From: Escherichia coli
GTDB lineage: Bacteria > Pseudomonadota > Gammaproteobacteria > Enterobacterales > Enterobacteriaceae
NCBI RefSeq assembly: GCF_048403405.1
Contig: NZ_CP183131.1
Direction: 5' to 3' (one strand)
Length of the DNA: 64,000 nt
The notes beneath the pieces are model-generated. The model did not search any database, was not told the origin of the DNA, and saw only the letters and a program-made list of their open reading frames with translations. The position numbers and the translations under genes are program-made. The number at the start of each line of letters is the position of its first letter. The first letter of the stretch is position 1. Of the stretch, positions 9,817 through 63,265 are shown in pieces.

Positions 9817-9832
9817 CCCAGCCCAAACCTTT

Positions 9833-10799: not shown

Positions 10800-10811
10800 T
10801 CAATCTACATG

Positions 10812-10838
10812 AGAAAGGGGCCGAAAGGCCCCTTTTTT
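10812..10838. terminator. bidirectional terminator hairpin (GGGGCCGAAAGGCCCC) between lipoprotein gene and traN
   Basis: A-run / hairpin / T-run shared by convergent genes. Confidence 0.7.
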
Positions 10839-42699: not shown

Positions 42700-42708
42700 A
42701 ACAATTAA

Positions 42709-42730
42709 GGGGCCGATGGCCCCTAATTTT
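42709..42730. terminator. terminator hairpin (GGGGCCGATGGCCCC + T-run) between convergent operons
   Basis: GC hairpin followed by TAATTTTT. Confidence 0.7.
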
Positions 42731-42790: not shown

Positions 42791-43069
42791 TCAATTCACA
42801 TGGATAGCGAATACTTCAACCGGACAATCTCCAAAGTGCGGGTGCGTTATAACACTCCTTGAGAAGCCACGCCAAGGGCGAATCTCTATCCTGGACATAT
42901 CTCCAGCCTTTGGGTAGCCACACTTAACATGGACTTCATCATACTCGCGCCCCTCTAGTCTTTTTATCCAGTAGTCTGTAACGAGGCGATATTCATCTGG
43001 TTTTTCTCCAGATTTGATCTGATCGAAGTAAATCTTTTTTACGGGCAGATGAAGTATTCTCTTTTTCAT
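42791..43069 (-). CDS. ASCH-like (PUA-fold) domain protein
   Basis: GxKxxExR-type motif IKSGEKPDEYR; ~92 aa. Confidence 0.5.
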   Translation of the reverse strand: MKKRILHLPVKKIYFDQIKSGEKPDEYRLVTDYWIKRLEGREYDEVHVKCGYPKAGDMSRIEIRPWRGFSRSVITHPHFGDCPVEVFAIHVN

Positions 43070-43094
43070 AATCACCACCTGATAGCCCATCAGA

Positions 43095-43301
43095 CTATCT
43101 AACTATTCGACAAAACATCCCTTTTTCAATTTCTGTCTCTCTCGCCTCATGGGCCAATACAATATCCGCGATAACACGAATATTCCCTTCATAGTTGCGA
43201 ATGGCCGCATCCCTCATCGTGTCTAAAGTGTCCTGACACTTCGCTCGCCTGAATTTAACGAGCCAACTTTGCCGATCTATCTTGTCCACACCAAATCCCA
43301 T
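43095..43301 (-). CDS. hypothetical small protein (68 aa)
   Basis: ORF contiguous with neighbours. Confidence 0.45.
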   Translation of the reverse strand: MGFGVDKIDRQSWLVKFRRAKCQDTLDTMRDAAIRNYEGNIRVIADIVLAHEARETEIEKGMFCRIVR

Positions 43302-43919
43302 TTAGCGAACCATGTATCCAGCTTTTTTGGCCGCAGCATCAAGCTCGGAGGAGAAGTTAACGTCGGACTTTTCTGCCGCGTTATAGAGGGCTCCACACTT
43401 GGGCCATGAGCGTCCTACCAGTTTCATCGCCAACGCATCCGCCAGCATTTCTCGGATCTGTGTTTCAGCCTCACCAAAATCGGCCAGAGTTTCGTCTATG
43501 CCCGACTCTTCCATCAGCTCGATGAGCTGTGGTTGTTTGAGCCAGACGCCTGTTTGCATTTCCAACTGATCTCTTGCATCGGCCACCAATTGGCGTTCAA
43601 GGGTTACGCCATTCACGGTCTTAACAAATTGCTTTGGCTGACGCTTTACCTTTTTTGGCCTGGACACATCAGAGATAACCGTCACCGGCTTCCCACGCAG
43701 TTCACGCGGCAACGGTCCACTTAGCCCCAGAACTAAGCGACGAGCGTACTCATGCTCGTATGGTTTCAACCCTCGACCTTCACGGTACATTTCAGTATCC
43801 ACCAGCAGATCACCGCGCAGCCTCGCATTTTTCCGCACTTGTTCGGACAAGACCGATTTACCCTTCCCGCTGGCTCCCATTACGAGCGAGTGAGATTCTA
43901 CTTTGTTATCAAAAAACAT
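43302..43919 (-). CDS. P-loop NTPase, dNMP-kinase-like
   Basis: Walker A LVMGASGKGKSV near N-terminus; 205 aa. Confidence 0.55.
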   Translation of the reverse strand: MFFDNKVESHSLVMGASGKGKSVLSEQVRKNARLRGDLLVDTEMYREGRGLKPYEHEYARRLVLGLSGPLPRELRGKPVTVISDVSRPKKVKRQPKQFVKTVNGVTLERQLVADARDQLEMQTGVWLKQPQLIELMEESGIDETLADFGEAETQIREMLADALAMKLVGRSWPKCGALYNAAEKSDVNFSSELDAAAKKAGYMVR

Positions 43920-44012
43920 AATTCCGCCCCCAAGGAGGTGTTGCTATAAAACATGGTTTGAACATCCGTATTTTCACGGCAATAACCGCCGGATAATGCA
44001 AGACTCCCAAAC

Positions 44013-44231
44013 CTAAATAGGTCTCCAGGTGATGACATCGAAGTCATAGCTGACTTCCGAGTTGTCGTCCGCCGTTCGCCACGAACAATCATCTTCCTGA
44101 ACATGGATCAAGTCGTACTCAACAATTTTGCCCGACCAACATCCTTTAAGCTGGCAATGAACAGGCACACCGACGACCGGCATCTTGTCGTTGACGCTGA
44201 TCCACGGTTCTTGCTTTTGATCCAGATCCAC
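44013..44231 (-). CDS. DUF551-like small protein
   Basis: WISVNDKMP motif typical of phage DUF551 proteins (recalled). Confidence 0.45.
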   Translation of the reverse strand: MDLDQKQEPWISVNDKMPVVGVPVHCQLKGCWSGKIVEYDLIHVQEDDCSWRTADDNSEVSYDFDVITWRPI

Positions 44232-44234
44232 CGG

Positions 44235-44516
44235 TTAGTCCTCTATGAACGATTTAATGGATCGCCCATCAAAAAACAGTTTCCCAGTTCCTGATACCGA
44301 ATGTACTTCTGGAGCTGCCTTCCCTTTCAGGAGTTTCTGATAGCGCACCGCGTCTTTGAGCTCAGAGATCCTGACGCCAATGAGTGTGGCCGTCTCCTCA
44401 ACTGTTAAAATACGGTCCCAAAAGCTGGTGGCGCTGTTATTGCGCCCACCGATACTCTGGGCAACGCACTCTGTTCTGGCCGCTTTTCCCTTTGCCATTG
44501 GCAATGTCCTCTTCAT
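44235..44516 (-). CDS. hypothetical protein, possible HTH
   Basis: ORF; start uncertain because of overlap with upstream gene. Confidence 0.4.
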   Translation of the reverse strand: MKRTLPMAKGKAARTECVAQSIGGRNNSATSFWDRILTVEETATLIGVRISELKDAVRYQKLLKGKAAPEVHSVSGTGKLFFDGRSIKSFIED

Positions 44517-45093
44517 TCTTCTCAGCCCCCAGCTTACTCAGTATTTCAGCTTTTGTAGCGCGATGGCCGCGCATTAAAAGAGCATTCAGCAGGTATCCAG
44601 TGAACACCTCTGTACTCGGCATACGGTCAAGCAACTCAACATACTGCTCATCCGTCAAATCATGGATCTCACAATATTTTTCCACCGCCTTTTCGTAGGC
44701 TTCTGCGTAGCCATGAGTGGAAATCCTGAAAGCAATATCCCCATTGCCGTAGCCTGGCTTTGTGACGAGAAAACAAGGCGCGAAGTAGGTTCTCTTCACC
44801 CCCATCCGGCTCCGGTTCTCAATGCTGATATAAGCCCTCAGCCCCTCAGCAATGATGTTTGGCCCGGAGTTGCGTCGCCGCTTACAAGTCTTATTCTGAC
44901 GCTTCACCTCTTCTGCCTCAGCTTCCCACTTTCGGTCCAAGCTGTAGGCCAGCCGGTGAGCTGTTGCGTAGGAATACTCTCTCAAGGAGAAGTATTCCTG
45001 CCGGTAATCATCCGCCACCCCAACTGTTCGTGCGACACGGAACCCGACGAAACCGGCGTCATGGGTTCCCTCGCCGTAGTAAATGACTGCCAT
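44437..45093 (-). CDS. hypothetical protein (218 aa)
   Basis: ORF directly downstream of Dcm-like gene; stop-start junction. Confidence 0.5.
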   Translation of the reverse strand: MAVIYYGEGTHDAGFVGFRVARTVGVADDYRQEYFSLREYSYATAHRLAYSLDRKWEAEAEEVKRQNKTCKRRRNSGPNIIAEGLRAYISIENRSRMGVKRTYFAPCFLVTKPGYGNGDIAFRISTHGYAEAYEKAVEKYCEIHDLTDEQYVELLDRMPSTEVFTGYLLNALLMRGHRATKAEILSKLGAEKNEEDIANGKGKSGQNRVRCPEYRWAQ

Positions 45094-46520
45094 TATCTAC
45101 CTTCCTTACTTCTGATACCGTGCTGCACCACGGTATGGCGACCGCAATTCACATTCAGGTGATCCCGAACTGCGGCCATGACCGCTGAATGCAATCTGTA
45201 ATCCACACTCTGCCCAAGCGTTTCTGTCGCTTGTTCTTTTGCCATCCACGAAACATCAAAGCTATCAGGTATCGACATCAACTCCTGAACCAGATCGACC
45301 GATGGCTTGTAAATGCGGCCACCGTCTTGGATGTACACTGCATCCTTTACCCCACGATCCTGAGACTTGAGGATGGTCGGGCAACTGGTGCTTTCTCTCG
45401 TCAAGAACGCAGGCATCCTGCGAGAAGTTGACTCTCTGGCCTGAATTGACTTCAACACTGTGACGTCAGCACAATCCCCGAGGTGCTTCTCGATCACCGG
45501 CCACAATCGTCCACCAGCTCTCTGCTCAGGTTTCGGTGGAACGAACCCAGGGAAGACCGACGCCACCATGTAATAGCGTTCTCGCCCCTGGTAAGCGCCG
45601 AAATCCAGACCGTTCAAGACCATCTCAGTGAGGAAGTACCCCATCCGCCGCAGTGTCGTTCCCATCATCGCCCCGGCTCCGGATGCTTTGAAGTTCGGGA
45701 CGTTTTCCACCAGCACGACGGCAGGGTTCACGACCTCGATCTGTTTTAGTGCCGGGTAAACCATGTCGAGCATGGTGGAGAGATCCTCAAGAGAACGCTC
45801 TTTGTCCCTTGGACTTTTGGCGTTTGAGTGGTCATCACACCCCAACGAGTAATGGGCCAAACCAATTGGTGGGCACTCCGCCAGCAAGGCTCCAAGGCGA
45901 TCCAGCTCCAGGTGATGAATGTCTTCATTCAGCAGGATACGCGGGGAGCTGTTCACCAGCGTATTGAGCGCATGTACTTCACTCAGGTTCCGCCCGGATG
46001 CTCTGTCTCTGGCTTCAACTGGACGATGCTCCAAAACAATCTCAGCCTTCCAGCCAAGCGCTTCCATAACATGAATGTCTACCCCGCCAGTCAATGCCAC
46101 AAAGGCACGGAAAGGGCTGGTTTTTCTGAACCGATCCGCAATGGCAAAGGCTCTGTTTGCGACAGGAGTGAAGACTACTCGGCCTTTTCGCATTTCGACG
46201 TGGAAACGCTCTGTATAGCGAGGGAAGCACTTATCTATGAGCCCTTGTCCAGAAAACTCAATAACGGTTTCCAGCGGGTTGTTGGAGCGACTCTTTGGTT
46301 GATACCGGCGCTGATAAACCTGGTGTGTCTGTAGTTCATCGGTCGCTGGGATCACCGAAAAACCGCCCATCCCCTCCCCTGGCTCAACGGCGATGCCCAT
46401 ACCTGGCTTGAACCCCATAACATCCAAAAAGTTGGACGAAACCCTAACCTTGCGTTTATCGCCTACTCGATTGAACGCAAGTTGTTTGGTTACTACGGAG
46501 GGGGAGACGATCGGTAACAT
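45093..46520 (-). CDS. C5-cytosine DNA methyltransferase (Dcm-like), no adjacent endonuclease recognised
   Basis: ENVPNF motif and QGRERYYMVA (QxRxR) motif; 475 aa. Confidence 0.7.
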   Translation of the reverse strand: MLPIVSPSVVTKQLAFNRVGDKRKVRVSSNFLDVMGFKPGMGIAVEPGEGMGGFSVIPATDELQTHQVYQRRYQPKSRSNNPLETVIEFSGQGLIDKCFPRYTERFHVEMRKGRVVFTPVANRAFAIADRFRKTSPFRAFVALTGGVDIHVMEALGWKAEIVLEHRPVEARDRASGRNLSEVHALNTLVNSSPRILLNEDIHHLELDRLGALLAECPPIGLAHYSLGCDDHSNAKSPRDKERSLEDLSTMLDMVYPALKQIEVVNPAVVLVENVPNFKASGAGAMMGTTLRRMGYFLTEMVLNGLDFGAYQGRERYYMVASVFPGFVPPKPEQRAGGRLWPVIEKHLGDCADVTVLKSIQARESTSRRMPAFLTRESTSCPTILKSQDRGVKDAVYIQDGGRIYKPSVDLVQELMSIPDSFDVSWMAKEQATETLGQSVDYRLHSAVMAAVRDHLNVNCGRHTVVQHGIRSKEGR

Positions 46521-46523
46521 TGG

Positions 46524-47024
46524 TCAACCTCTTTTCTTCTTGTTTTGCTCGCGCTTCACCATTGCTCCAGCAGCTTTCAGAAGTCTCTGGTTCTCCGCCA
46601 GCTCCTCTTGGAGTTCCTGAGTATCCTCTTCTGTCTGAGGCTTTTTCAGCTCGGCCTCGCAATATTGGACCTCTTCCTGCAAGCTGACTTTCGCAAACTT
46701 GAGAGCGGCCAGTCGCGTCGTATAAACGCCAAAAGGCAATTCGCCACCTTCCCGGAACTGCTTCAAACACCAGCTCGGTATAGATGGCAACCAACCAAAG
46801 TCCCCATTCTTCCGTGACCTTTTCCCCCACGTAATCCCATCTAACTTTTGGGCAAGATTGACATAGCGTTGATCGCTGGTTGAGTTGCGTCGTTTCTGAA
46901 TAGAGCGAACTATCCACTCTGTAACCTCGACCTTTGCTTTATCATCATCAGAGATGTAATAAAGGGCTGCGTACAACACAGCGCCTTTACGAATGACTGA
47001 TGGTGGGTATGCCTGGGCTTTCAT
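46524..47024 (-). CDS. hypothetical protein (166 aa)
   Basis: ORF in operon. Confidence 0.5.
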   Translation of the reverse strand: MKAQAYPPSVIRKGAVLYAALYYISDDDKAKVEVTEWIVRSIQKRRNSTSDQRYVNLAQKLDGITWGKRSRKNGDFGWLPSIPSWCLKQFREGGELPFGVYTTRLAALKFAKVSLQEEVQYCEAELKKPQTEEDTQELQEELAENQRLLKAAGAMVKREQNKKKRG

Positions 47025-47032
47025 CTATCCCC

Positions 47033-47365
47033 CTATCGCTTTTTCTGTCCGACAAGACGGAGATGATCGGCGGCCAAGTCATACTGCTCGTTTTTGTCGC
47101 GGCGGCGGAATCTGTCAAAAAACTTCCCTCGTGGCAGGGTTTCTTCCATAGCGATCAGGCGGTTCAGCCACACTTCTTGAGGTAGCATCCCTGCTGGAGT
47201 CGGCCCGAGCTTACGTCCTTCCTTGACGTGCTCCATTGTTTGCGTGGCAGTAAAAATCGCACCACCAAACTTTCTCCACTTGAATTGCAGGGGCATATCT
47301 GGAGACTCATCCAGCATCAATTTCTTATTGGTTTGTTCTGTCACGACAATTACTCCACCATCCAT
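47033..47365 (-). CDS. hypothetical protein (110 aa)
   Basis: ORF in operon. Confidence 0.45.
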   Translation of the reverse strand: MDGGVIVVTEQTNKKLMLDESPDMPLQFKWRKFGGAIFTATQTMEHVKEGRKLGPTPAGMLPQEVWLNRLIAMEETLPRGKFFDRFRRRDKNEQYDLAADHLRLVGQKKR

Positions 47366-47874
47366 TCTTCACTAAGCAGGAACGCCCAGCGCTCTTCTGC
47401 TTTTTCTGGGTTGTCTTTGGCCTGTTTGATCATGATCTCGGCGGCGTTAAAGCCTACCTCTCCACTGAACCGGCCCCATGAATGGCTATGCCACTCGCGC
47501 ATCACACTTCGGCCAAGCGATGCAAGTTCTGGACTTACACCCTCATGGAGGGCATAGAGCTCCCAAGCATCCCACCCGTATCGTAATAGGTTGTGCCCTG
47601 GGGCGTTAAAGGCCTGAGCAGCCTTGAACCGCTCTCCAGGCTCCTTCCCTCTAACATCCACACCCTGGAGCACCAACCCCATTACCACTTCAATGACCGG
47701 CTCGCGTTGCTTCTTTGCCAGCTCGATGGCAGCCACCAGCATTGCTTTGGCGTCAGCAAATTTCCCATGCCCTTGGCACATACCGCAGGTTTCTTTGGAA
47801 GGGGAAAAGTCATAAACACCGGAACCAGCACAGAGGCGGCATGTCATGTCAATCATGGGCTCTTCTCTCCTCAT
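47350..47874 (-). CDS. protein with DnaJ-type zinc-finger repeats (CRLCAGSG, CGMCQGHG)
   Basis: Two CxxCxGxG motifs near N-terminus. Confidence 0.55.
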   Translation of the reverse strand: MRREEPMIDMTCRLCAGSGVYDFSPSKETCGMCQGHGKFADAKAMLVAAIELAKKQREPVIEVVMGLVLQGVDVRGKEPGERFKAAQAFNAPGHNLLRYGWDAWELYALHEGVSPELASLGRSVMREWHSHSWGRFSGEVGFNAAEIMIKQAKDNPEKAEERWAFLLSEEWMVE

Positions 47875-48556
47875 ACTCTTCGATGCGCTCTTTCAGACGC
47901 TGAACCACTGGTGCGAGCTCAGGGATAGCTTCCGCTTCCTCAAGCGTGTATCGCTTGTCTTCCTGGTAATCGACTATTTGAGGAGGCCTTGGCTGTTTAG
48001 GGAACTCAGCAAAGTCATTCAGCGACATCGAGGTAGGAAGTCCTCCTTCAATCTCACCTTTTTCGTTGAGTGACTGGGTGACGATAAGCTGTGTTCCGCC
48101 CACCTCGGTATCAAAGCGGTCATCAAAGCGCTCACCGATAGTCCAGCCGCCACGGCCAAGAACACAGGTCGTACTCATACGTAGGCGATTGAATGCTTTA
48201 GCGTCATCCCAGTTCAAAGGATTTTCATCCATGAGGAAAAAAGGCGCTTCGTCCCGAACGAACACCTTGGACTTGGCGTTATCGAAGATCGGCCCAAACA
48301 CCCCCTGCTGGAGGTATGGTTCGACCTTCTCTGCAAGATCCTGGTGCCCTTGAGAACGCAGCGCCTCATAGAGCTGGGTGATTGTTTGTTTGCCGGTGCC
48401 CGGAAGGCAGGACAATACTGTCTGCTTTTCCTCGTCACTCAGGCTTACCATTCTGGACAAAAAGCTGACTACCAGCTCGTTGTGCCCATCGACCGTTTCA
48501 ATGTTGAGCTTGTTCTCGTCCATCTTCTTCCTCAGTAATCGGTTCGATAAATTCAA
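47849..48556 (-). CDS. hypothetical protein (235 aa)
   Basis: ORF in operon. Confidence 0.5.
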   Translation of the reverse strand: MNLSNRLLRKKMDENKLNIETVDGHNELVVSFLSRMVSLSDEEKQTVLSCLPGTGKQTITQLYEALRSQGHQDLAEKVEPYLQQGVFGPIFDNAKSKVFVRDEAPFFLMDENPLNWDDAKAFNRLRMSTTCVLGRGGWTIGERFDDRFDTEVGGTQLIVTQSLNEKGEIEGGLPTSMSLNDFAEFPKQPRPPQIVDYQEDKRYTLEEAEAIPELAPVVQRLKERIEEYEERRAHD

Positions 48557-48866
48557 TGGAGTCCATGCTTACATGACTGATAATGGCTTTCAGGCCGCAG
48601 CAGTCGCATGGTTCAAAGGTCAGTTCTGATCCCTTGGGAGACTGATGCGTGACCGTTGCCACAGCCCCTAGAGGGATCACCCCCCAGCCGTTTTTTAGTA
48701 CCCGAGTAGTTCTGACCAGCCGACCTTTGTACTCTCGTTTCAGTTTCGGATGCGGCACTACCGCATATCGCTTACTCATTTCGGTCCCCTTGTACCAAAG
48801 GCTCGACAACCAGCTCTTGAGCTTCGTCCCAGTCGGACACCTTTGCATCACCAAACGCAAAGGCAA
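48498..48866 (-). CDS. hypothetical protein (start probably internal ATG ~48779)
   Basis: ORF; overlap with upstream gene suggests later start. Confidence 0.4.
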   Translation of the reverse strand: MPLRLVMQRCPTGTKLKSWLSSLWYKGTEMSKRYAVVPHPKLKREYKGRLVRTTRVLKNGWGVIPLGAVATVTHQSPKGSELTFEPCDCCGLKAIISHVSMDSIEFIEPITEEEDGREQAQH

Positions 48867-49158
48867 TTCGCATAGCCACTGTCGGCCTGCCTATTTTCAT
48901 CAAGTAAGCCGCAGCACCGGCACACATCGACTCTTGTCCCGAAGGTGCATAGTTACCCTCTTCATCCCATTCACCACCTGACTTTGAATGCACGGTCTTG
49001 TGGCAATGAAACGTCGTCATGTCGTTTTCAACGATGTCGTTGATGATGCCTTCTAATCGCCCAGGGACCAGCTCGATAGCGCCCTCCTTCCGGAATGGAC
49101 AGTTGGCGCAAGGTTTCTTCAAACGGAGATGATTTGCTTGCTTTGGCATACATATCAC
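48772..49158 (-). CDS. cysteine-rich small protein (CANCPFR...HCHKTV), first gene of the operon
   Basis: ORF ~89 bp downstream of a box. Confidence 0.5.
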   Translation of the reverse strand: MICMPKQANHLRLKKPCANCPFRKEGAIELVPGRLEGIINDIVENDMTTFHCHKTVHSKSGGEWDEEGNYAPSGQESMCAGAAAYLMKIGRPTVAMRIAFAFGDAKVSDWDEAQELVVEPLVQGDRNE

Positions 49159-49246
49159 TTTTACAGTATCATTTTATGATTCTATGATATAGCCATATTC
49201 CGTGTAGTCAATATCTCACTAACAATTACTTTCTATCGGACGCTTA

Positions 49247-49261
49247 CGCGCCCATTTTGGG
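49247..49261. promoter_or_regulatory. GCCCAWTTTGGRCA-type box ~89 bp upstream of the 49158 operon start
   Basis: GCCCATTTTGGGCAG. Confidence 0.5.
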
Positions 49262-49314
49262 CAGATAGACAAGTTATTTGGGCGTTTGGAGTGTGCGAGG
49301 TGGACAGCGGGGAG

Positions 49315-49332: not shown

Positions 49333-49467
49333 TTTGTTTCTTGGTATCGTTTTATTGTCCCTTGATATTATTTTATGATGCTGTAATAATCATAAATAAG
49401 GGCCGCATCGCTCTTCGACCTTCGTTGCAGCCCTTACAACACAATCAAGCAATTAAGGAGCTTTGTT

Positions 49468-49611
49468 ATGCTGCAAGGCAATACTAACACGAATAAGCGC
49501 ATCCCGCTCGCGGCGTTCATGAAATGGCCGCTGGCGAAACGTCAGGACTTCATCGACCGGGAAATGTCCGGTTGCCCCGACTTTATCAAGACGTCTTTGC
49601 TTCGGCATTAA
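49468..49611 (+). CDS. possible small protein (47 aa)
   Basis: AAGGAG 8 nt before ATG; followed by hairpin; below ORF-track cutoff. Confidence 0.35.
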   Translation: MLQGNTNTNKRIPLAAFMKWPLAKRQDFIDREMSGCPDFIKTSLLRH

Positions 49612-49702
49612 GGCGATCAGGCAGGAAAGCAAAGAACCTCGCTTCGGCGGGGTTCTTCGTTTCTACCTCTTGAATGTTTCGTCAGAACAAACTGGAGCGC
49701 TT

Positions 49703-50338
49703 ATGTCACCAGAAACACAGCAACTTACATCCAAGGCTTTATCTCTCATCGAGCAGTCCCGATACAGAATGGGCACATCTCGGTTTGTTGAGGCCTTTAT
49801 TGACCAGTGGGCATACTTGCAGACTGGCCTATACCCAGCCAAGGAGGAGATCCCGGAAGAACTTCAGCCGGTCGCCTTCGAGCTCTCTCACGTCCTGTCT
49901 GCCGCCATTAAGCGCGACCCCACCAGCGATGTTTTGGGTTACGTCCTAAGCATGTCTGGCTTCCACAAGAAGGGCACCAATTACTTCCCCACTCCTCCAG
50001 AGATTGGCCGCTTGATGTCACTCATTGTTGGCTCACAGTCTTCGGCAGACTTTTATGAGCCCTGCTGTGGTTCTGGCATCAACGCCATTCACTGGATGGA
50101 AAACCTGATCGAGAACCACGGTCCCGAAGCATTGAGAGAAGCCTCAATCTACCTGGAAGACATCGATCCGTTGATGGTGAAGTGCTGCATGATCCAGCTA
50201 TTCCATTATTTCGAGTCCCGCAATACCACTCCCAAAACGCTGAGTATCGTCGGCATAGACACCCTTAGCAGACGAACCAAGAACATCGCCTACTACGCCG
50301 AAAAACCTCCAGCAACCGCCGCTACCGTGGCAGCATAA
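49703..50338 (+). CDS. N6-adenine methyltransferase-like SAM-binding domain protein, apparently lacking catalytic (D/N)PP(Y/F) motif
   Basis: FPTPPEIGRLM and FYEPCCGSG motifs; GGAG RBS; only 211 aa. Confidence 0.5.
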   Translation: MSPETQQLTSKALSLIEQSRYRMGTSRFVEAFIDQWAYLQTGLYPAKEEIPEELQPVAFELSHVLSAAIKRDPTSDVLGYVLSMSGFHKKGTNYFPTPPEIGRLMSLIVGSQSSADFYEPCCGSGINAIHWMENLIENHGPEALREASIYLEDIDPLMVKCCMIQLFHYFESRNTTPKTLSIVGIDTLSRRTKNIAYYAEKPPATAATVAA

Positions 50339-53167: not shown

Positions 53168-53473
53168 TTATCCCACTCTATTGTAAACAAGACATTTTTA
53201 TCTTTTATATTCAATGGCTTATTTTCCTGCTAATTGGTAATACCATGAAAAATACCATGCTCAGAAAAGGCTTAACAATATTTTGAAAAATTGCCTACTG
53301 AGCGCTGCCGCACAGCTCCATAGGCCGCTTTCCTGGCTTTGCTTCCAGATGTATGCTATTCTGCTCCTGCAGCTAATGGATCACCGCAAACAGGTTACTC
53401 GCCTGGGGATTCCCTTTCGACCCGAGCATCCGTATGAGACTCATGCTCGATTATTATTATTATAGAAGCCCCC

Positions 53474-54289
53474 ATGAATAAATCGCTCATCATTTTCGGC
53501 ATCGTCAACATAACCTCGGACAGTTTCTCCGATGGAGGCCGGTATCTGGCGCCAGACGCAGCCATTGCGCAGGCGCGTAAGCTGATGGCCGAGGGGGCAG
53601 ATGTGATCGACCTCGGTCCGGCATCCAGCAATCCCGACGCCGCGCCTGTTTCGTCCGACACAGAAATCGCGCGTATCGCGCCGGTGCTGGACGCGCTCAA
53701 GGCAGATGGCATTCCCGTCTCGCTCGACAGTTATCAACCCGCGACGCAAGCCTATGCCTTGTCGCGTGGTGTGGCCTATCTCAATGATATTCGCGGTTTT
53801 CCAGACGCTGCGTTCTATCCGCAATTGGCGAAATCATCTGCCAAACTCGTCGTTATGCATTCGGTGCAAGACGGGCAGGCAGATCGGCGCGAGGCACCCG
53901 CTGGCGACATCATGGATCACATTGCGGCGTTCTTTGACGCGCGCATCGCGGCGCTGACGGGTGCCGGTATCAAACGCAACCGCCTTGTCCTTGATCCCGG
54001 CATGGGGTTTTTTCTGGGGGCTGCTCCCGAAACCTCGCTCTCGGTGCTGGCGCGGTTCGATGAATTGCGGCTGCGCTTCGATTTGCCGGTGCTTCTGTCT
54101 GTTTCGCGCAAATCCTTTCTGCGCGCGCTCACAGGCCGTGGTCCGGGGGATGTCGGGGCCGCGACACTCGCTGCAGAGCTTGCCGCCGCCGCAGGTGGAG
54201 CTGACTTCATCCGCACACACGAGCCGCGCCCCTTGCGCGACGGGCTGGCGGTATTGGCGGCGCTGAAAGAAACCGCAAGAATTCGTTAA
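53474..54289 (+). CDS. sul2: sulfonamide-resistant dihydropteroate synthase Sul2
   Basis: Protein matches Sul2 along its length (MNKSLIIFGIVNITSDSFSDGGRYLAPDAAIAQARKLMAEGADVIDLGPASSNPDAAPV...). Confidence 0.95.
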   Translation: MNKSLIIFGIVNITSDSFSDGGRYLAPDAAIAQARKLMAEGADVIDLGPASSNPDAAPVSSDTEIARIAPVLDALKADGIPVSLDSYQPATQAYALSRGVAYLNDIRGFPDAAFYPQLAKSSAKLVVMHSVQDGQADRREAPAGDIMDHIAAFFDARIAALTGAGIKRNRLVLDPGMGFFLGAAPETSLSVLARFDELRLRFDLPVLLSVSRKSFLRALTGRGPGDVGAATLAAELAAAAGGADFIRTHEPRPLRDGLAVLAALKETARIR

Positions 54290-54349
54290 CTGCACATTCG
54301 GGATATTTCTCTATATTCGCGCTTCATCAGAAAACTGAAGGAACCTCCA

Positions 54350-55153
54350 TTGAATCGAACTAATATTTTTTTTGGTGAATCGCATTCTGACTGGTTGCCT
54401 GTCAGAGGCGGAGAATCTGGTGATTTTGTTTTTCGACGTGGTGACGGGCATGCCTTCGCGAAAATCGCACCTGCTTCCCGCCGCGGTGAGCTCGCTGGAG
54501 AGCGTGACCGCCTCATTTGGCTCAAAGGTCGAGGTGTGGCTTGCCCCGAGGTCATCAACTGGCAGGAGGAACAGGAGGGTGCATGCTTGGTGATAACGGC
54601 AATTCCGGGAGTACCGGCGGCTGATCTGTCTGGAGCGGATTTGCTCAAAGCGTGGCCGTCAATGGGGCAGCAACTTGGCGCTGTTCACAGCCTATCGGTT
54701 GATCAATGTCCGTTTGAGCGCAGGCTGTCGCGAATGTTCGGACGCGCCGTTGATGTGGTGTCCCGCAATGCCGTCAATCCCGACTTCTTACCGGACGAGG
54801 ACAAGAGTACGCCGCAGCTCGATCTTTTGGCTCGTGTCGAACGAGAGCTACCGGTGCGGCTCGACCAAGAGCGCACCGATATGGTTGTTTGCCATGGTGA
54901 TCCCTGCATGCCGAACTTCATGGTGGACCCTAAAACTCTTCAATGCACGGGTCTGATCGACCTTGGGCGGCTCGGAACAGCAGATCGCTATGCCGATTTG
55001 GCACTCATGATTGCTAACGCCGAAGAGAACTGGGCAGCGCCAGATGAAGCAGAGCGCGCCTTCGCTGTCCTATTCAATGTATTGGGGATCGAAGCCCCCG
55101 ACCGCGAACGCCTTGCCTTCTATCTGCGATTGGACCCTCTGACTTGGGGTTGA
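54350..55153 (+). CDS. aph(3'')-Ib: aminoglycoside 3''-phosphotransferase APH(3'')-Ib (StrA)
   Basis: Protein recognised as StrA (MNRTNIFFGESHSDWLPVRGGESGDFVFRRGDGHAFAKIAP...). Confidence 0.95.
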   Translation: MNRTNIFFGESHSDWLPVRGGESGDFVFRRGDGHAFAKIAPASRRGELAGERDRLIWLKGRGVACPEVINWQEEQEGACLVITAIPGVPAADLSGADLLKAWPSMGQQLGAVHSLSVDQCPFERRLSRMFGRAVDVVSRNAVNPDFLPDEDKSTPQLDLLARVERELPVRLDQERTDMVVCHGDPCMPNFMVDPKTLQCTGLIDLGRLGTADRYADLALMIANAEENWAAPDEAERAFAVLFNVLGIEAPDRERLAFYLRLDPLTWG

Positions 55154-55989
55154 TGTTCATGCCGCCTGTTTTTCCTGCTCATTGGCACGTTTCGCAACCT
55201 GTTCTCATTGCGGACACCTTTTCCAGCCTCGTTTGGAAAGTTTCATTGCCAGACGGGACTCCTGCAATCGTCAAGGGATTGAAACCTATAGAAGACATTG
55301 CTGATGAACTGCGCGGGGCCGACTATCTGGTATGGCGCAATGGGAGGGGAGCAGTCCGGTTGCTCGGTCGTGAGAACAATCTGATGTTGCTCGAATATGC
55401 CGGGGAGCGAATGCTCTCTCACATCGTTGCCGAGCACGGCGACTACCAGGCGACCGAAATTGCAGCGGAACTAATGGCGAAGCTGTATGCCGCATCTGAG
55501 GAACCCCTGCCTTCTGCCCTTCTCCCGATCCGGGATCGCTTTGCAGCTTTGTTTCAGCGGGCGCGCGATGATCAAAACGCAGGTTGTCAAACTGACTACG
55601 TCCACGCGGCGATTATAGCCGATCAAATGATGAGCAATGCCTCGGAACTGCGTGGGCTACATGGCGATCTGCATCATGAAAACATCATGTTCTCCAGTCG
55701 CGGCTGGCTGGTGATAGATCCCGTCGGTCTGGTCGGTGAAGTGGGCTTTGGCGCCGCCAATATGTTCTACGATCCGGCTGACAGAGACGACCTTTGTCTC
55801 GATCCTAGACGCATTGCACAGATGGCGGACGCATTCTCTCGTGCGCTGGACGTCGATCCGCGTCGCCTGCTCGACCAGGCGTACGCTTATGGGTGCCTTT
55901 CCGCAGCTTGGAACGCGGATGGAGAAGAGGAGCAACGCGATCTAGCTATCGCGGCCGCGATCAAGCAGGTGCGACAGACGTCATACTAG
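55153..55989 (+). CDS. aph(6)-Id: aminoglycoside 6-phosphotransferase APH(6)-Id (StrB)
   Basis: Protein recognised as StrB starting MFMPPVFPAHWHVSQ; start overlaps strA stop. Confidence 0.95.
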   Translation: MFMPPVFPAHWHVSQPVLIADTFSSLVWKVSLPDGTPAIVKGLKPIEDIADELRGADYLVWRNGRGAVRLLGRENNLMLLEYAGERMLSHIVAEHGDYQATEIAAELMAKLYAASEEPLPSALLPIRDRFAALFQRARDDQNAGCQTDYVHAAIIADQMMSNASELRGLHGDLHHENIMFSSRGWLVIDPVGLVGEVGFGAANMFYDPADRDDLCLDPRRIAQMADAFSRALDVDPRRLLDQAYAYGCLSAAWNADGEEEQRDLAIAAAIKQVRQTSY

Positions 55990-56255
55990 ATATCAAGCGA
56001 CTTCTCCTATCCCCTGGGAACACATCAATCTCACCGGAGAATATCGCTGGCCAAAGCCTTAGCGTAGGATTCCGCCCCTTCCCGCAAACGACCCCAAACA
56101 GGAAACGCAGCTGAAACGGGAAGCTCAACACCCACTGACGCATGGGTTGTTCAGGCAGTACTTCATCAACCAGCAAGGCGGCACTTTCGGCCATCCGCCG
56201 CGCCCCACAGCTCGGGCAGAAACCGCGACGCTTACAGCTGAAAGCGACCAGGTGC

Positions 56256-57453
<1,198 letters not shown>

Positions 57454-57919
57454 GCCTGTGGGAGGAAAATAAAGTGTCATCCTAACTACAGGACCCTGCA
57501 ACGTAGCAATTCCTGCAAAAATCCATTTAAAACAATGACTTATTTCAATTCTGCCATCTGCAAGCGTTTTGTGGGGATGGAGGCCGGAATCATTAAAGTA
57601 TCATCCTAATTTTCGCTCAACCTTGGAAAATGCTGAGAATCGTAAAAATAAAGTTTCATCCTTTCCGCTACTAGTTCAAGGCTTTCTTCCGGCCGCCGGC
57701 AACAACGCTGCTTGGCTGAGGCGATCCACTTGCGCTACCGCTCACTGATCAGATCGAACTTGAACTCGACGAGCAGCCAACCATCAGGCCGAGCGTGATC
57801 GCCAAAAAAAACGGATCATGCGAAATCCTTCGTTGAGTTTGGCGCGGGTTTTAGCAAATCAGCTGGCCCGCGATCCGGTTGAGAGTGATCCGAAGCGGTC
57901 CTTGACGACCGGCACAAAT

Positions 57920-59536
57920 CGGCCGATTCTGTTGAAAAAGTAGCTTTAGCGGCAGCCTGCCGATCAGGTGTGCCTGCTGTCGAAGTGGCTGCAAGCCACT
58001 TCAAGTTGCCTTCCGGCGTTTCACTGAGCGTCCTTGCTCAGGTTTAAGGGTTAATTTGAGGGTTTCTGCTCGTAGCAGGCATACCTATCCCGTCAGCGGT
58101 GGCCCTTGAGGCAAAAGCTTGGCCATGCGGCGCAGGTTCTGCACCATCGCAGCCAAGGTGAATTCGTCAGTGGCACCCGTTAGGCCACGCAGTCGTAAAC
58201 GGTCGAGTTTCATGATCCGTTTGAGGTGGGCGAAAAGCATCTCCACCTTCTTTCGTTCGCAGCGAGAGACGAGGTACTCCGGTGTCTTGGCGATGCGTCG
58301 AGCCACGTCGCGGGCAGCCTCATGGATGCTGCGGACGATCTTCCGATTCGGCGTGTTGGGGCAGCATTTCGCTTTCAACGGGCAGGTGGCGCAGTCGGTT
58401 TGGCTGGAGCGGTAAATGACGGTTTTGGCCTTAGTTACCCGCGACCTTTGCTGGGTGAAGGCGCGCCATTCACTGCGTAGCGGTTTGCCGGCTGGGCAGC
58501 GATATTCATTGGCGTCCTGACTCCAGTGAAAGTCGTTACTGGAGAGGCTGTCGTCCTTGCGCTCGGTCTTGTCCCACACCGGCACATGCGGTTCGATGTC
58601 CTTTTCTTCGACCATCCAGGCCAGCATCGGGGCGGTGCCATAAGCGGTATCGCCGATAAGGCGTTCCGGTGTGAGATCGAACTGCGCCTCGACACGCTCG
58701 ACCATCGTCCTAGTCGAATCGACTTCGGCGGTACGGTGCGCCGGGGTAGCTTCCACGTCCATGATCACACCGTGCTCAGTGTCGATCAGGTAATTCGTGG
58801 AGTAGGCAAAAAAGGCCGGGCCACCTGGCGCTGCTGTCCAACGGGACTGAGGATCAGTGAGCGAAATTTTCTTGGGAAGAGCCTCAGCCAGCGCCTCTTC
58901 ATCAAGGGCTTCGAGGTACTCGCGCACTGCGCGGCTGCTGAGCTTTGGATCGTTCCAATCGACCTCATCTCCCGCCACCCCACGTTGCCGGCTGGCATCC
59001 GCCTTAATGATGCTGGCGTCGACGGCGAAACCTTCACCCTTGACTAGGCCGGCTGCCATGCAGCGCCGCAGCACCTCATTGAATAACCAGCGGAATAGAT
59101 CGCTGTCACGAAAACGCCCATGGCGATTCTTCGAGAAGGTCGAGTGATTGGGGACTTCGTCTTCCAGACCCAACCGGCAGAACCAGCGATAGGCCAGGTT
59201 CAGGTGCACCTCTTCGCACAATCGCCGCTCGGAACGAATGCCATAGCAGTAGCCGACGACCAGCATGCGCACCATCAACTCCGGGTCAATCGAGGGACGC
59301 CCGATGGGGCTATAGAAATCTGCCAGGTAGGCACGTAGATCACTGAGATCCAAGCACTGGTCGATGCTGCGCAGGAGATGTTGGGCCGGGACGTGATCTT
59401 CCAGATTGAACGAGTAGAACAGGCGCTGCTGTCCTCCCGGTAACTGTCCCATCATGCTGTTCGCCCCCACGCTCGCTGACAAAGCAATTTTGCCAACGGC
59501 ATGGGGAGGCCGCTACTTTTTCAACAGAATCGGCCG
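57920..59536 (-). mobile_element. insertion sequence with 25-bp perfect terminal inverted repeats (IS1182/IS5-superfamily-like; possibly ISCfr1-related, name from memory)
   Basis: CGGCCGATTCTGTTGAAAAAGTAGC at ~57920 and its reverse complement at ~59512; single transposase ORF. Confidence 0.7.
58085..59482 (-). CDS. tnpA: IS transposase (DDE type)
   Basis: 465-aa ORF filling the TIR-bounded element. Confidence 0.7.
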   Translation of the reverse strand: MSASVGANSMMGQLPGGQQRLFYSFNLEDHVPAQHLLRSIDQCLDLSDLRAYLADFYSPIGRPSIDPELMVRMLVVGYCYGIRSERRLCEEVHLNLAYRWFCRLGLEDEVPNHSTFSKNRHGRFRDSDLFRWLFNEVLRRCMAAGLVKGEGFAVDASIIKADASRQRGVAGDEVDWNDPKLSSRAVREYLEALDEEALAEALPKKISLTDPQSRWTAAPGGPAFFAYSTNYLIDTEHGVIMDVEATPAHRTAEVDSTRTMVERVEAQFDLTPERLIGDTAYGTAPMLAWMVEEKDIEPHVPVWDKTERKDDSLSSNDFHWSQDANEYRCPAGKPLRSEWRAFTQQRSRVTKAKTVIYRSSQTDCATCPLKAKCCPNTPNRKIVRSIHEAARDVARRIAKTPEYLVSRCERKKVEMLFAHLKRIMKLDRLRLRGLTGATDEFTLAAMVQNLRRMAKLLPQGPPLTG

Positions 59537-59569
59537 CACACAGCCATTCGGCTCAACAGAACCCTGCCT

Positions 59570-60727
59570 TTACCCCACCAAACTCCGGAAACTCGCCCGG
59601 TAGTCCGTCGGCTTGAGATGCACATGTTGGCTGAGGTCGCCGGGTAGCGTGAACAGGCGCGGACCGTCCCGAAACTGGAACACGCGATACAGATGGAATT
59701 GATCGCCCGCCTCCTTGGAGAATTCGAGTTCGTTGTGGCTGACCAAGAAAGACGAGCCTACCCCGCCATTGGTGGTTTTCACCTCGATGAAGCGCTCATG
59801 GGCGTCCTCTTCGAACGACAGGATGTCGAACCCCGCACCGTCTCCCTGGGTGTCGGACACCCAATCCAGCCGCTGAAAAAGCTCTGGGTGGCCGAGCTCG
59901 GTCAGGCGTTGCTGTTCGTAGCCAATCACCCACTGCTCCCCTGCCCGGCCCAGCTTGCGGTTGGCTTCATCGCGAGCGGCATAATCGAACTTTCGCGGTA
60001 GGCGTTGCCGTAGAGATGCCGGGGTACGCACAAGCACTTCACGGGCGGGTGGTTCTACCAAAGCCGCTCGGTAGGTTTTGTCACCCGGAAGTTTTACCTC
60101 CTCCAGGGCATCGACAAGAGCGCCGACCGTCTGCTGATGTTCCAGAACGTAGGCGTGTACGGATTTACGCAGCAGCAGTTGGCTGTTGCCGCGTGGCTTG
60201 TAGCCGTTGATATAGGGCAGGCCCAGGGCATCGAGTACGGCGCTAATGTTCTGGTGCTTGAGCTCGACTGAAGACTTGCTGCGACCGTTCAGCAGTTGGC
60301 GCAGTGCCTGGTTGTGCTCGGACTTGTGGTACGGCTCCCCAGCCGCCTCGGCACGCAGCATGTCGAAATAGTCTTCGACCGTGGCCAGGACCTCTTCTTC
60401 GGACCAGTCTTCGCCGATGCGAATGATGCGAAACCCGAGCCGCGTCAGCGCCGGAACGACGGTCGTCTCGCCACCGGAGAAGCTGTCAGCAGTGAGCGGG
60501 CCCTGCTCGGGAAATTGCTTGCCGAAGGCCACACCGGCGATGGCCTTGGAATCGCAATCGGTGCCGGTCTTCGGATCACGTACCAGGAAGTCGCGGGACT
60601 TGCCGTAGCCGTGGCGCGCCAGGAATTTCGTGCGGCCCAGTTGCACGAACTCATCGATGGCAGCCTGCACGGCGGCGGGGCTTCGAAGCTGGGAGAGTTG
60701 AGACACAGGGTCCTTCCTTACTGTCAT
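59570..60727 (-). CDS. DUF3883-like (NOV C-terminal, restriction-endonuclease-fold) domain protein
   Basis: C-terminal region WVIGYEQQRL...GFDILSFEEDAHERFIEVKTT...FHLYRVFQF resembles DUF3883 (recalled); start set at ATG giving MTVRKDP; GC-rich. Confidence 0.5.
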   Translation of the reverse strand: MTVRKDPVSQLSQLRSPAAVQAAIDEFVQLGRTKFLARHGYGKSRDFLVRDPKTGTDCDSKAIAGVAFGKQFPEQGPLTADSFSGGETTVVPALTRLGFRIIRIGEDWSEEEVLATVEDYFDMLRAEAAGEPYHKSEHNQALRQLLNGRSKSSVELKHQNISAVLDALGLPYINGYKPRGNSQLLLRKSVHAYVLEHQQTVGALVDALEEVKLPGDKTYRAALVEPPAREVLVRTPASLRQRLPRKFDYAARDEANRKLGRAGEQWVIGYEQQRLTELGHPELFQRLDWVSDTQGDGAGFDILSFEEDAHERFIEVKTTNGGVGSSFLVSHNELEFSKEAGDQFHLYRVFQFRDGPRLFTLPGDLSQHVHLKPTDYRASFRSLVG

Positions 60728-61288
60728 GGTGTGCCGGGAACCGCCGAGCCACGAGATTATGAGTAGCCCCTGAACAGAAACGTCACGATAAAAGCCGTGA
60801 ACGCCACCAGGCCCATTAAATCCCTTGCGTATTTGCAGCCCGTGCTGTCCAAACCTGTACCAGGTCCGATCAACACGCTCCAACCATTGAGGTACGAAAA
60901 CACCGCCTGACCGAACAAAAAATGCGTGATAGCCGCCGCAGCCATGACGCCGGAATCGTCAGACAGGCTGTAGCTGTTGACCATTGCCCTGTACGCCTGC
61001 ATCTGAAATGGCTATTGCCCTGATGGGAGCCGGCTTTTCAGCCACCGACACCAGCGATGCCGTCAATATTCTTTACCCGATAACCATGACCGTACAAGCT
61101 AACAAGGCCTGGCAAGCCAGCGGACTTAAAAAGTCTTTTTTTCTACCATCCCACAAAAAAGTTCGTGGTGGAGAAAAGATAAGCTATGCAAGGCTTTAGG
61201 AGACGTGGTTTTTCAGGATGACGAAGAACGATTCGGCGCTAGGTGCAACATAGGTGCATCGCACGAGCGCTAGGAACGGCGAAAAAAG

Positions 61289-61587
61289 GCGGACGTGGCG
61301 AAATCGGTAGACGCAGCAGACTTTAAAATTGGAGTGCCCGCGGGGAAATCCGCGGAGTAGAACCGCTCAAAGTCGGGGAACGCTAACGGGCAATACCCTA
61401 AGCCAATCCCGAGCCAAGCCCCTTCGGGGGAAGGTGTAGAGACTGGACGGGCGGCGCCTAAAGCCTTCGGGCAATGGCGAAGGGACAGTCCAGACCACGA
61501 ACGTCATCAGACGGCGGCGAAAGTCGAGGTGGTACGAAAATCTGCTTCTCTGTGAGAGTACGGGTTCGAGTCCCGTCGTCCGCACCA
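61289..61587 (+). tRNA. tRNA-Leu(UAA) gene interrupted in the anticodon loop by a ~213-nt group I intron
   Basis: 5' exon GCGGACGTGGCGAAATCGGTAGACGCAGCAGACTT; 3' exon AAAATCTGC + long variable arm + T-arm ACGGGTTCGAGTCCCGT + CGTCCGCACCA; intron ends in G and carries group I core-like GTGTAGAGACTGGACGG / ACAGTCCAGACC. Confidence 0.7.
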
Positions 61588-61680
61588 CAAAGCCAAACAT
61601 CCCTGCGATGATCGACCTCTGGGCGTTTGGTCGTGAGCCCGCCACCCTCGCGCTACGCTTTGCGCAGGCGTCGAAGGCGA

Positions 61681-62223
61681 TCAGGTGCGCCCATCGATTC
61701 CGTCGAGCACCATCGCTGCGAGTTCATCGCTGGTGTGTGCACCACTATCGAGAACACGGGTTGTGCATGGAAGCCGTTCCCTTGCGGCCAAGCATCGGGC
61801 GACATTCGCTAATCGCCACTCTCGAATCTCCGCATTTCGATTCGGGTCAGGATGCATGGTCTGGTTCGCGATCCGGTGACGCAATAGGTCCTCGTTGAGC
61901 GTCAGAAAGATGTGCAGCAGCTGATCGTCGATCCGCCTTACCCCGTCGAGTATCTCAGTCAGATAGTCCGGGTGCACGAGCGTCATTGGGATGATGATGT
62001 CCTGCGAGTAATTCCTTCGAATCTCCCTGACCGCCGCGATCGTAAGTCCCCTCCACAAGGGGAGATCCTGATAGTCTCCGCTCGCTGGCATGGGGACCGT
62101 TTCTTTCACCACGAACCCGATTTCCTCGGGGTCAAAGATCAGCGATTTGGAACGCCGATCGCGCAGCCGCTTAGCGAGCGTCGTCTTTCCGGCGCCGAAA
62201 GGTCCGTTGATCCAGATTATCAT
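61681..62223 (-). CDS. tmrB: TmrB-like P-loop ATPase (tunicamycin resistance protein family)
   Basis: N-terminus MIIWINGPFGAGKTTLAKRL; adjacent to aac(3)-II. Confidence 0.8.
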   Translation of the reverse strand: MIIWINGPFGAGKTTLAKRLRDRRSKSLIFDPEEIGFVVKETVPMPASGDYQDLPLWRGLTIAAVREIRRNYSQDIIIPMTLVHPDYLTEILDGVRRIDDQLLHIFLTLNEDLLRHRIANQTMHPDPNRNAEIREWRLANVARCLAARERLPCTTRVLDSGAHTSDELAAMVLDGIDGRT

Positions 62224-62235
62224 TGTCGACGGCCT

Positions 62236-63096: not shown

Positions 63097-63120
63097 CGCG
63101 ATATCTCCTCTAAACTGCAA

Positions 63121-63262
63121 AACACTATACGGGGTCTGACGCTCAGTGGAACGAAAACTCACGTTAAGGGATTTTGGTCATGAGATTATCAAAAAGGATC
63201 TTCACCTAGATCCTTTTAAATTAAAAATGAAGTTTTAAATCAATCTAAAGTATATATGAGTA
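63121..63262 (-). mobile_element. second Tn2/Tn3 end fragment (IRR + ~100 bp), direct repeat of 56256..56396, cut by IS26
   Basis: Same IR and adjacent sequence as downstream of blaTEM; diverges into IS26 IRL. Confidence 0.8.
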
Positions 63263-63265
63263 AAC

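Follow-up and report, generated by a model that had tools for sequence, protein, structure and literature searches.

An AcaCD-controlled operon of IncC plasmids and its predicted orphan cytosine methyltransferase, Dcm2

What does a block of small, mostly uncharacterised genes do for a conjugative plasmid that switches it on together with conjugation? The question is raised by positions 42791-49149 of a 64-kb stretch of Escherichia coli DNA (contig NZ_CP183131.1; hereafter the window), where minus-strand genes including the methyltransferase gene dcm2 lie below a conserved sequence box and were originally predicted to form an establishment and anti-defence module. The window is IncC (IncA/C2) conjugative-plasmid backbone, as follows from its matches to IncC-typed plasmids and from the genes flanking the block. 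Such plasmids do much to spread carbapenemase and multidrug resistance, and their host range is unusually broad. The block corresponds to vcrx036-vcrx043 plus vcrx050-055 of plasmid pVCR94, a locus already in the literature. Because its operon, box, transcription start and dcm2 have all been published, the suggestion that the block is new territory has to be given up: a known feature has been rediscovered. The vcrx036 promoter is one of ~17 promoters in the AcaCD conjugation regulon, and we consider it probable that vcrx036-dcm2 is an AcaCD-driven accessory operon of the IncC plasmid in which Dcm2 contributes redundantly to restriction escape. The points added here are modest: the predicted fold and the conservation of vcrx036, an atypical Dcm2 subfamily, a mobile 462-bp segment carrying two genes, and corrected annotation labels.

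The AcaCD box and the operon below it

AcaCD is an FlhDC-like master activator of IncA/C conjugation, for which 17 peaks were mapped in pVCR94 by chromatin immunoprecipitation with exonuclease treatment (ChIP-exo; Carraro et al. 2014, PMC4207636). Upstream of vcrx036, the same study places a binding motif at pVCR94 positions 20382-20410 (p=5.3e-10) with a ChIP-exo peak at 20410. Rapid amplification of 5' cDNA ends (5'-RACE) puts the transcription start at 20445-20447, ~36 nt past the end of the motif, and vcrx036 itself starts at 20501. Like the site of a class II activator, the motif extends over the -35 region (PMC4207636). In the window, the box noticed originally is present as an exact match to the core of this motif, and it does not stand alone. 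Eight boxes with at most two mismatches are found against 0.82 expected, a count reached in none of 100 shuffles. All eight read TGCCCAAAATGGGC on the minus strand, are intergenic and lie upstream of minus-strand genes, and their order agrees with the published one: vcrx036, vcrx059/traI, vcrx068 and traL, then the dsbC, traN and vcrx086/087 sites. The IncA plasmid pEc09 carries an identical box at the same place, within flanks that are only 87.7% identical. Since the box is an AcaCD operator, the block belongs to the conjugation regulon, and this membership fits expression around transfer and establishment.

Positions from pVCR94 (KF551948) were carried over to the window via gene sizes and distances, and the transferred transcription start (Table 1) presumes that no indel separates the box from the ATG. 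The spacing of ~89 bp given originally agrees with the 91 nt between the box and a GTG at 49158, but the start codon favoured by RefSeq, by pVCR94 and by the N-termini of homologues is the ATG at 49149, 100 nt from the box. The IncA promoter has a 13-bp deletion that recreates a -10 sequence, GATAAT. As a separate observation, a sigma-70-like promoter (TTGACT, 16-nt spacer, TATCAT) occupies 49184-49211 on the minus strand, just downstream of the AcaCD-dependent start, and the IncA deletion takes out its -35 hexamer. Going by its sequence, this promoter might provide basal, AcaCD-independent expression in IncC plasmids.

RefSeq and a second, independent gene caller agree on 12 minus-strand genes running from 49149 to 42791. 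The count of 13 genes first proposed depends on an open reading frame (ORF) at 44235-44516, which is absent from the RefSeq annotation and is plausible in a shorter, 87-aa helix-turn-helix (HTH) form. Gaps among the first eight genes range from -26 to +8 nt, so that these genes, overlapping or nearly abutting, are read as one message. The tight packing ascribed to the whole block holds for these eight but not beyond them, where a 205-nt stretch containing the 87-aa ORF is followed, further on, by a 93-nt gap. Expression in pVCR94 follows the activator (PMC4207636). On acaDC induction, vcrx036 rises from 0 to 320, and an operon vcrx036-vcrx044 is predicted. With AcaCD, vcrx037-040 rise from 0-70 to 117-988 in RNA sequencing (RNA-seq), vcrx038 showing the highest RNA level of the operon, while vcrx036-040 are silent in an acaCD deletion and are induced again on complementation. 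The published operon ends at vcrx044 because pVCR94 carries an insertion, vcrx044-049, within the 218-aa gene that uncouples the distal genes. Unlike that arrangement, the operon in the window is uninterrupted, and read-through from Pvcrx036 as far as the terminator-like hairpin at its end is likely.

Dcm2 and the other products

The literature calls the vcrx042 gene dcm2 (Roy et al. 2020, PMC7498323; Wang et al. 2019), and its product is the sole protein of the block that falls in a well-defined family. Residues 228-320 match the C5-cytosine methyltransferase family PF00145 at 6.7e-8, and the protein also matches phrog_116. A profile built from 28 Dcm2 relatives aligns to residues 62-190 of M.HhaI at 1.9e-17, and the family profile extends along residues 61-325 of DNMT2, through to motif X. 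Among these relatives, which share 25-50% identity, C228, E272, R313, R315 and G436 are invariant and Q437 is nearly so. C228 is the catalytic cysteine of motif IV, E272 lies in the ENV of motif VI (EQV in some relatives), R313 and R315 form the RxR of motif VIII, and G436-Q437 belong to the GQS of motif X. The N-terminal ~140 aa are also conserved across the family and contain R-K-V-x-I-S-S-N-x-L; a likeness of this domain to AbrB/SpoVT, seen by eye, is supported by no tool and is not claimed. With ~94 representatives at E 1e-30 or better, Dcm2 and its relatives appear to constitute a divergent C5-methyltransferase subfamily, a point that is new here.

Neither the block nor its flanks have an annotated restriction endonuclease, and a PADLOC scan covering ten of the 13 proteins (all but three distal ones) returned methyltransferase or restriction-modification matches for Dcm2 alone. 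Dcm2 is therefore an orphan, and the original assignment of an orphan C5-cytosine methyltransferase stands.

The first gene, vcrx036, encodes a protein described originally as Cys-rich. The wording overstates a protein with just four cysteines in 125 aa, but the residues themselves are telling: C14, C17, C49/H50 and C76 are invariant in the homologue alignment and hence look like zinc ligands. Homologues in distant proteobacteria retain 50-77% identity, from which strong purifying selection follows. Two features relate the protein to DUF6283, an uncharacterised family. Firstly, Foldseek comparison of its model with AFDB50 finds a DUF6283 protein at E=5.2e-6, TM 0.70 and ~25% identity. Secondly, the N-terminal CxxCPF, invariant in the alignment, shares the DUF6283 motif CxxCP. 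With modelled fold and motif agreeing, vcrx036 is predicted to be DUF6283-like; it differs from that family in that no Pfam match is on record for it or its close homologues, and structure comparison found no analogue in the PDB. Elsewhere, vcrx036 homologues are found among extended runs of small genes that have no annotation. A role as methyltransferase partner was considered and dropped: an N6-methylase adjoins the gene in IncC plasmids and in the IncP-7 plasmid pCAR1.3, where it immediately follows the vcrx036 homologue, and is absent in three other contexts.

Among the remaining proximal proteins, vcrx039 carries the DnaJ-type zinc finger that was originally noticed. Its residues 6-31 contain two CxxCxGxG repeats, CRLCAGSG and CGMCQGHG, with no J domain, and hidden Markov model (HMM) matches to DnaJ over the Cys-rich region (residues 4-45) are weak (E=0.003). 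The vcrx038 family is narrow, comprising 23 proteins; the thymidylate kinase name that it bears in RefSeq and UniRef has no NCBIfam or Pfam support and was rejected as a legacy label. Searches of the whole block against Pfam (single sequence), NCBIfam, PHROGs, PADLOC and the PDB, in which not every library was run on every protein, returned only Dcm2, the weak DnaJ zinc finger and three unannotated PHROGs (phrog_5443, phrog_18599 and phrog_625). The original description, of small genes that are mostly uncharacterised and phage-like, stand under the control of a box and include an orphan methyltransferase, is borne out.

Several labels in the distal part need adjustment. A relative of the 218-aa protein is named 'AP2 domain' by one source, a name to which the Pfam AP2 match (E=4.9) lends no significance. 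The 87-aa ORF overlaps the 218-aa gene by 62 nt and runs into the 462-bp segment. Dismissing it as spurious, on account of this overlap and of the absence of the segment from the other IncC lineage, was considered and set aside given its ribosome-binding site, its exact sequence called on at least 1000 contigs and its UniRef name, 'DNA-binding protein'. The ORF, which also has a weak excisionase PHROG match (E=0.14), is plausibly real, and is present or absent together with the 72-aa gene. For the 72-aa protein, the DUF551-like label first given is shared by UniRef, although the Pfam match is weak. The 205-aa protein was taken for a kinase of deoxynucleoside monophosphates (dNMPs) with a P-loop. 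Its Walker-A motif is conserved, yet no kinase is recognisable, and the test for a kinase fold (P-loop, LID and NMP-binding regions) was negative, so we reject this label. RefSeq and UniRef name the 99-aa protein ASCH or RNA-binding, and it matches the unannotated phrog_625, but the ASCH-like label proposed originally is weak: the single sequence has no Pfam match even at E up to 10, and no NCBIfam match.

Conservation and gene turnover

Megablast with the 6.7-kb block found 1069 matching PLSDB plasmid records. Identity is at least 99% in 458 of these and 95-99% in a further 548, and pKAZ3 (KR827392.1) carries the block at 100% identity. The matching plasmids, with the types IncC, MOBH and MPF_F, come chiefly from Klebsiella, Salmonella, Escherichia, Citrobacter, Providencia and Vibrio. 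At a coverage of at least 80%, the six proximal genes with their promoter are found in 1004 records, dcm2 in 1000, the three distal genes in 940 and traI in 961, and 994 of 1068 records carry the six proximal genes at 99% identity or more. These genes persist as often as the relaxase gene does, which marks the block as stable backbone.

The distal end, on the other hand, has been built through insertion and loss of single genes. About 549 PLSDB records represent a variant without the 462-bp segment (98.3% identity, 93% coverage), and this segment may be the small insertion 'i1' of type 2 IncC plasmids. IncA plasmids lack the 218-aa gene, the 462-bp segment and most of vcrx037 (window positions 48570-48739 are missing). 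Individual block genes are scattered singly in IncP-7, pAsa4 and pAQU-type plasmids. At the equivalent site in pAsa4b (1631-7671), between topB and a vcrx039 homologue, the cargo is different and looks like a defence system: it encodes a GIY-YIG nuclease and a helicase-related protein along with a large DNA methyltransferase. In MOBH plasmids the site thus appears to be a hotspot for variable cargo.

Such turnover invites the explanation that phage-derived genes have accumulated, in the manner of morons, at a permissive site bordered by the par and topB modules, and that they ride the AcaCD promoter with no shared function, only some of them, such as Dcm2, being useful. IncA, the two IncC lineages and pVCR94 differ in whether they have the 218-aa gene, the 462-bp segment and vcrx037. 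The other cargo of pAsa4b, the single genes dispersed among other plasmid types and the seven kinds of insertion sequence (IS) found inside the block point the same way. The near-identity and retention of the six proximal genes, the purifying selection on vcrx036 and the conservation of box and promoter in IncA argue against it, and we hold this explanation to be doubtful.

The setting of the block agrees with that in pVCR94, in which the box and its spacing from the first gene are the same, the sizes and order of vcrx036-043 and vcrx050-055 match those of the window genes and the same flanks are found, with parAB and the N6-methylase on one side and the topB operon on the other. To the left in the window, a convergent topB (topoisomerase III) operon is followed by the MobH relaxase gene traI. 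To the right come, in order, a small divergent ORF, an N6-DNA methylase, an HTH gene and parB/parA. The positions of these and other features are given in Table 1.

Not all copies are on contigs of plasmid size. Positions 1-13349 of a 4.98-Mb contig in GCA_040565085.1 contain the whole block, with a vcrx059-like gene at one end, the N6-methylase at the other and both topB and the operon in between. Its neighbours there are not parAB but genes of a P-type transfer system (CagX, TrbI and DUF2274). Two further block-bearing contigs (L002 and L004) are likewise Mb-sized. These contigs suggest chromosomal integration or recombination of IncC segments.

Table 1. Positions of the operon, its control elements and surrounding features in the 64-kb window
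Feature	Position	Strand	Remarks
AcaCD-binding motif core, GCCCATTTTGGGCA (minus strand reads TGCCCAAAATGGGC)	49250-49263	-	Exact match; within published 29-nt MAST motif, ~49240-49268
-10-like GATATT	49215-49210	-	Read from sequence
AcaCD-dependent transcription start (inferred)	49203-49205	-	pVCR94 5'-RACE coordinates transferred; 54-56 nt upstream of vcrx036 ATG
vcrx036-like, 125 aa	48772-49149	-	Predicted DUF6283-like zinc-binding protein
vcrx037-like, 93 aa	48498-48779	-	RefSeq-annotated; no family match; largely absent from IncA
vcrx038-like, 224 aa	47849-48523	-	Acidic: pI 4.6, net charge -17
vcrx039-like, 168 aa	47350-47856	-	N-terminal DnaJ-type zinc finger and a further C-terminal domain
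vcrx040-like, 103 aa	47033-47344	-	GTG start; basic; RefSeq CDS; no family match
vcrx041-like, 166 aa	46524-47024	-	Phage-borne family; phrog_18599 at 6.6e-31; no PDB match
dcm2 (vcrx042, WP_000936896.1), 475 aa	45093-46520	-	Predicted orphan divergent C5-cytosine DNA methyltransferase
218-aa gene	44437-45093	-	Absent from IncA; interrupted in pVCR94
87-aa HTH DNA-binding protein (plausible)	44235-44498	-	ATG 44498; AGAGGA Shine-Dalgarno; not RefSeq-annotated
462-bp segment	43967-44428		72-aa gene and most of the 87-aa ORF; in this IncC lineage, absent from the other IncC lineage and from IncA (blastn)
72-aa acidic DUF551-like protein	44013-44231	-	Pfam DUF551 (PF04448) E=0.1, score 13.9, model 2-62 of 68
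205-aa DUF8308 protein (pVCR94 vcrx053)	43302-43919	-	Conserved Walker-A motif
68-aa gene	43095-43301	-	RefSeq CDS; no family match
99-aa protein (pVCR94 vcrx055)	42791-43090	-	phrog_625 at 4e-31 (unannotated PHROG)
Bidirectional intrinsic-terminator-like hairpin	42708-42724		7-bp stem, 6 G-C pairs, T runs on both strands; between the operon and the convergent topB operon
47-aa ORF (vcrx035)	49344-49487	+	Divergent from the operon
Short N6-DNA methylase (pVCR94 vcrx034; 'dam1' of pKAZ3)	49670-50338	+	Divergent from the operon
Resistance island past parA	53400-64000		sul2, aph(3'')-Ib and aph(6)-Id (strAB), blaTEM-1, ISCfr1, DUF3883 gene, aac(3)-IId, IS26
hde operon	~3217-8900	-	Below AcaCD box 9079-9092 (1 mismatch)
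vcrx089	6884-7852	-	CobS-like AAA ATPase
vcrx090	5965-6873	-	
ssb	5374-5913	-	
bet	4290-5321	-	
exo	3217-4227	-	

Restriction escape, establishment and transfer

The explanation that we consider probable, an AcaCD-driven accessory operon, would work as follows. AcaCD, as shown for pVCR94, binds a 29-nt motif with the core TGCCCAAAATGGGC and activates Pvcrx036 in class II fashion, with transcription starting ~55 nt upstream of vcrx036. The tightly packed operon would be co-expressed with the transfer genes in donors and expressed again in the fresh transconjugant during a burst of AcaCD, as the hde operon (vcrx087-093) must be. Dcm2, the one product with an assignable activity, would mark plasmid and host DNA. 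Together with dcm1 and dcm3, with which it would be redundant, it would thereby help the plasmid to escape cytosine-sensitive restriction on entering new hosts. The other products would be non-essential, phage-like accessory functions. Two published results favour this proposal. A triple dcm1/2/3 knockout of pVC211 lost transfer (Wang et al. 2019), and an IncC dcm in pKAZ3 confers 2700-fold protection against EcoRII (Dimitriu et al. 2024, PMC11602122). By contrast, knockout of pKAZ3 'dam1', whose primers match the N6-methylase adjoining the operon, left restriction sensitivity unchanged (PMC11602122).

Several observations weigh against this proposal. Methyltransferase activity of Dcm2 is predicted and not proven, because motif I (FxGxG) is unrecognisable and motif IV, S-L-Q/G-C-D-D, is without the usual Pro-Cys (compare G-F-P-C-Q); an (S/T)-(S/G)-G-(V/I)-D at the place expected for motif I lies outside all profile and PDB alignments. 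Published work holds no phenotype or recognition motif specific to dcm2. Wang et al. 2019 describe plasmid-induced methylome changes, assign no motif to dcm2, and report of its single knockout merely that the plasmid was not lost while the mutant was being constructed. The EcoRII-protective dcm of pKAZ3 was considered as a candidate for dcm2 and rejected: its primers place it at 80-82 kb, and it is therefore a different gene. Transposon insertion sequencing (TnSeq) of transfer into Vibrio cholerae O395, a host with type I restriction-modification and CRISPR, flagged only vcrx089-093 and no dcm gene (Roy et al. 2020, PMC7498323). In pVCR94, RNA-seq of vcrx041 and vcrx042 was noisy, with no significant dependence on AcaCD, and vcrx053, the 205-aa gene, was transcribed strongly (1758) even with acaCD deleted. 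A separate promoter must hence serve the distal part, although a simple promoter scan of the 93-nt gap upstream of the 205-aa gene found no AcaCD-independent one. The single box-driven operon of the original prediction is thus upheld for vcrx036-040 in pVCR94, but not for the distal 205-aa gene. Finally, copies of IS1, IS5, IS26, IS30, IS630, ISKpn18 and ISVsa5 lie inside the block in individual plasmids, resistance-island insertions within it are common, and ~15% of records have a truncated block.

The block could instead be an island dedicated to establishment and anti-defence, with new inhibitors of host defence among its small proteins that go to work in the recipient as soon as the plasmid has entered; several of the proteins would be of this kind. 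This hypothesis is plausible, though we regard it as doubtful. It draws on the activator that the block shares with hde, the proven anti-restriction and anti-CRISPR locus of IncC plasmids, which depends on AcaCD (PMC7498323). The genes are small, fast-evolving and phage-related, with matches to all three unannotated PHROGs. The arrays in which vcrx036 homologues are found on other plasmids recall leading regions, vcrx038 is acidic as well as most highly expressed, and the block has an orphan methyltransferase, in which leading regions are enriched (Samuel et al. 2024, PMC11541004). Against these points, searches of NCBIfam, PHROGs and Pfam, made with no dedicated anti-defence HMM library, found no match to ArdA, ArdB/KlcA, ArdC, PsiB, SSB or anti-CRISPR families among the 13 proteins, and the TnSeq screen flagged none of the block genes. 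Insertions of IS elements and resistance islands are tolerated, and pVCR94 transfers well although its operon is split (PMC4207636). Position is also unfavourable. None of oriT, mobI and repA lies inside the window; in pVCR94, oriT, beside mobI, is ~20 kb from vcrx036; and the nick site and transfer direction of IncC plasmids had still not been determined by 2017. For these reasons leading-region status cannot be claimed, and the likeness to leading regions drawn originally fails as far as location is concerned. Moreover, the promoter is not of the single-strand type that fires on the incoming strand: expression needs plasmid-encoded AcaCD, and so would not be expected from an incoming single strand.

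To a further proposal we give a little less credence than to the island itself. Either the block encodes at least one new anti-restriction or anti-defence factor made during the AcaCD burst, with the strongly conserved vcrx036 and the acidic, highly expressed vcrx038 as lead candidates, or Dcm2, with its additional N-terminal domain and atypical motif IV, couples methylation to transfer and is unusual in its substrate or specificity.

It is improbable that the operon serves conjugation or tra regulation through its DNA-binding and zinc-finger proteins, with methylation as a regulatory mark. Co-regulation with the tra genes by AcaCD, the adjoining topB and traI operons, the putative DNA-binding proteins (the 87-aa HTH protein, the AP2-like protein and the N-terminal domain of Dcm2) and the influence of methylation on transfer that the literature describes for other plasmids are all compatible with such a role. 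It is contradicted by the efficient transfer of pVCR94 with an interrupted operon, by published sets of transfer-essential IncC genes, which do not include block genes (PMC4207636, PMC7498323), and by the many plasmids typed conjugative by MOB-suite whose block is truncated. Least credible is the interpretation of Wang et al. 2019 that plasmid methylases form a 'mobile restriction-modification barrier' against other foreign DNA, for although the host admitted a mini-Tn5 from SM10 once all three dcm genes had been deleted, that evidence is indirect and not dcm2-specific, and no restriction endonuclease is encoded in or beside the block.

The operon is retained like the relaxase gene in ~1,000 sequenced plasmids and is on with conjugation, and 11-12 of its 13 products are without known function. 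Should the operon help plasmids to establish themselves in hosts proficient in defence, IncC plasmids would have in it a second determinant of host range beside hde, and it would also be a source of new anti-defence proteins.

Comparison with known systems places the operon beside hde, leading-region islands and orphan methyltransferases. The hde operon lies on the same plasmid, within the same window, and is likewise driven by an AcaCD box, part of the conserved backbone and expressed around transfer. It differs in its proven anti-restriction (vcrx089-090), in the repair of CRISPR breaks by ssb, bet and exo, in its TnSeq phenotype, and in its recognisable AAA ATPase, SSB, RecT and lambda-exonuclease domains, none of which occurs in the vcrx036-dcm2 block. 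The leading-region islands of Samuel et al. 2024 (PMC11541004) are, like the block, same-strand arrays of small, mostly unannotated genes with an orphan methyltransferase and a presumed role in establishment, and differ from it in that the block is without an ardA, klcA, psiB or ssb homologue. With E. coli Dcm and M.EcoRII-type orphans, Dcm2 shares the C5-methyltransferase core from motif IV to motif X, the lack of a cognate endonuclease and a broad-host-range conjugative plasmid as carrier, whereas its odd motif IV, unrecognisable motif I and extra N-terminal domain set it apart as a separate subfamily.

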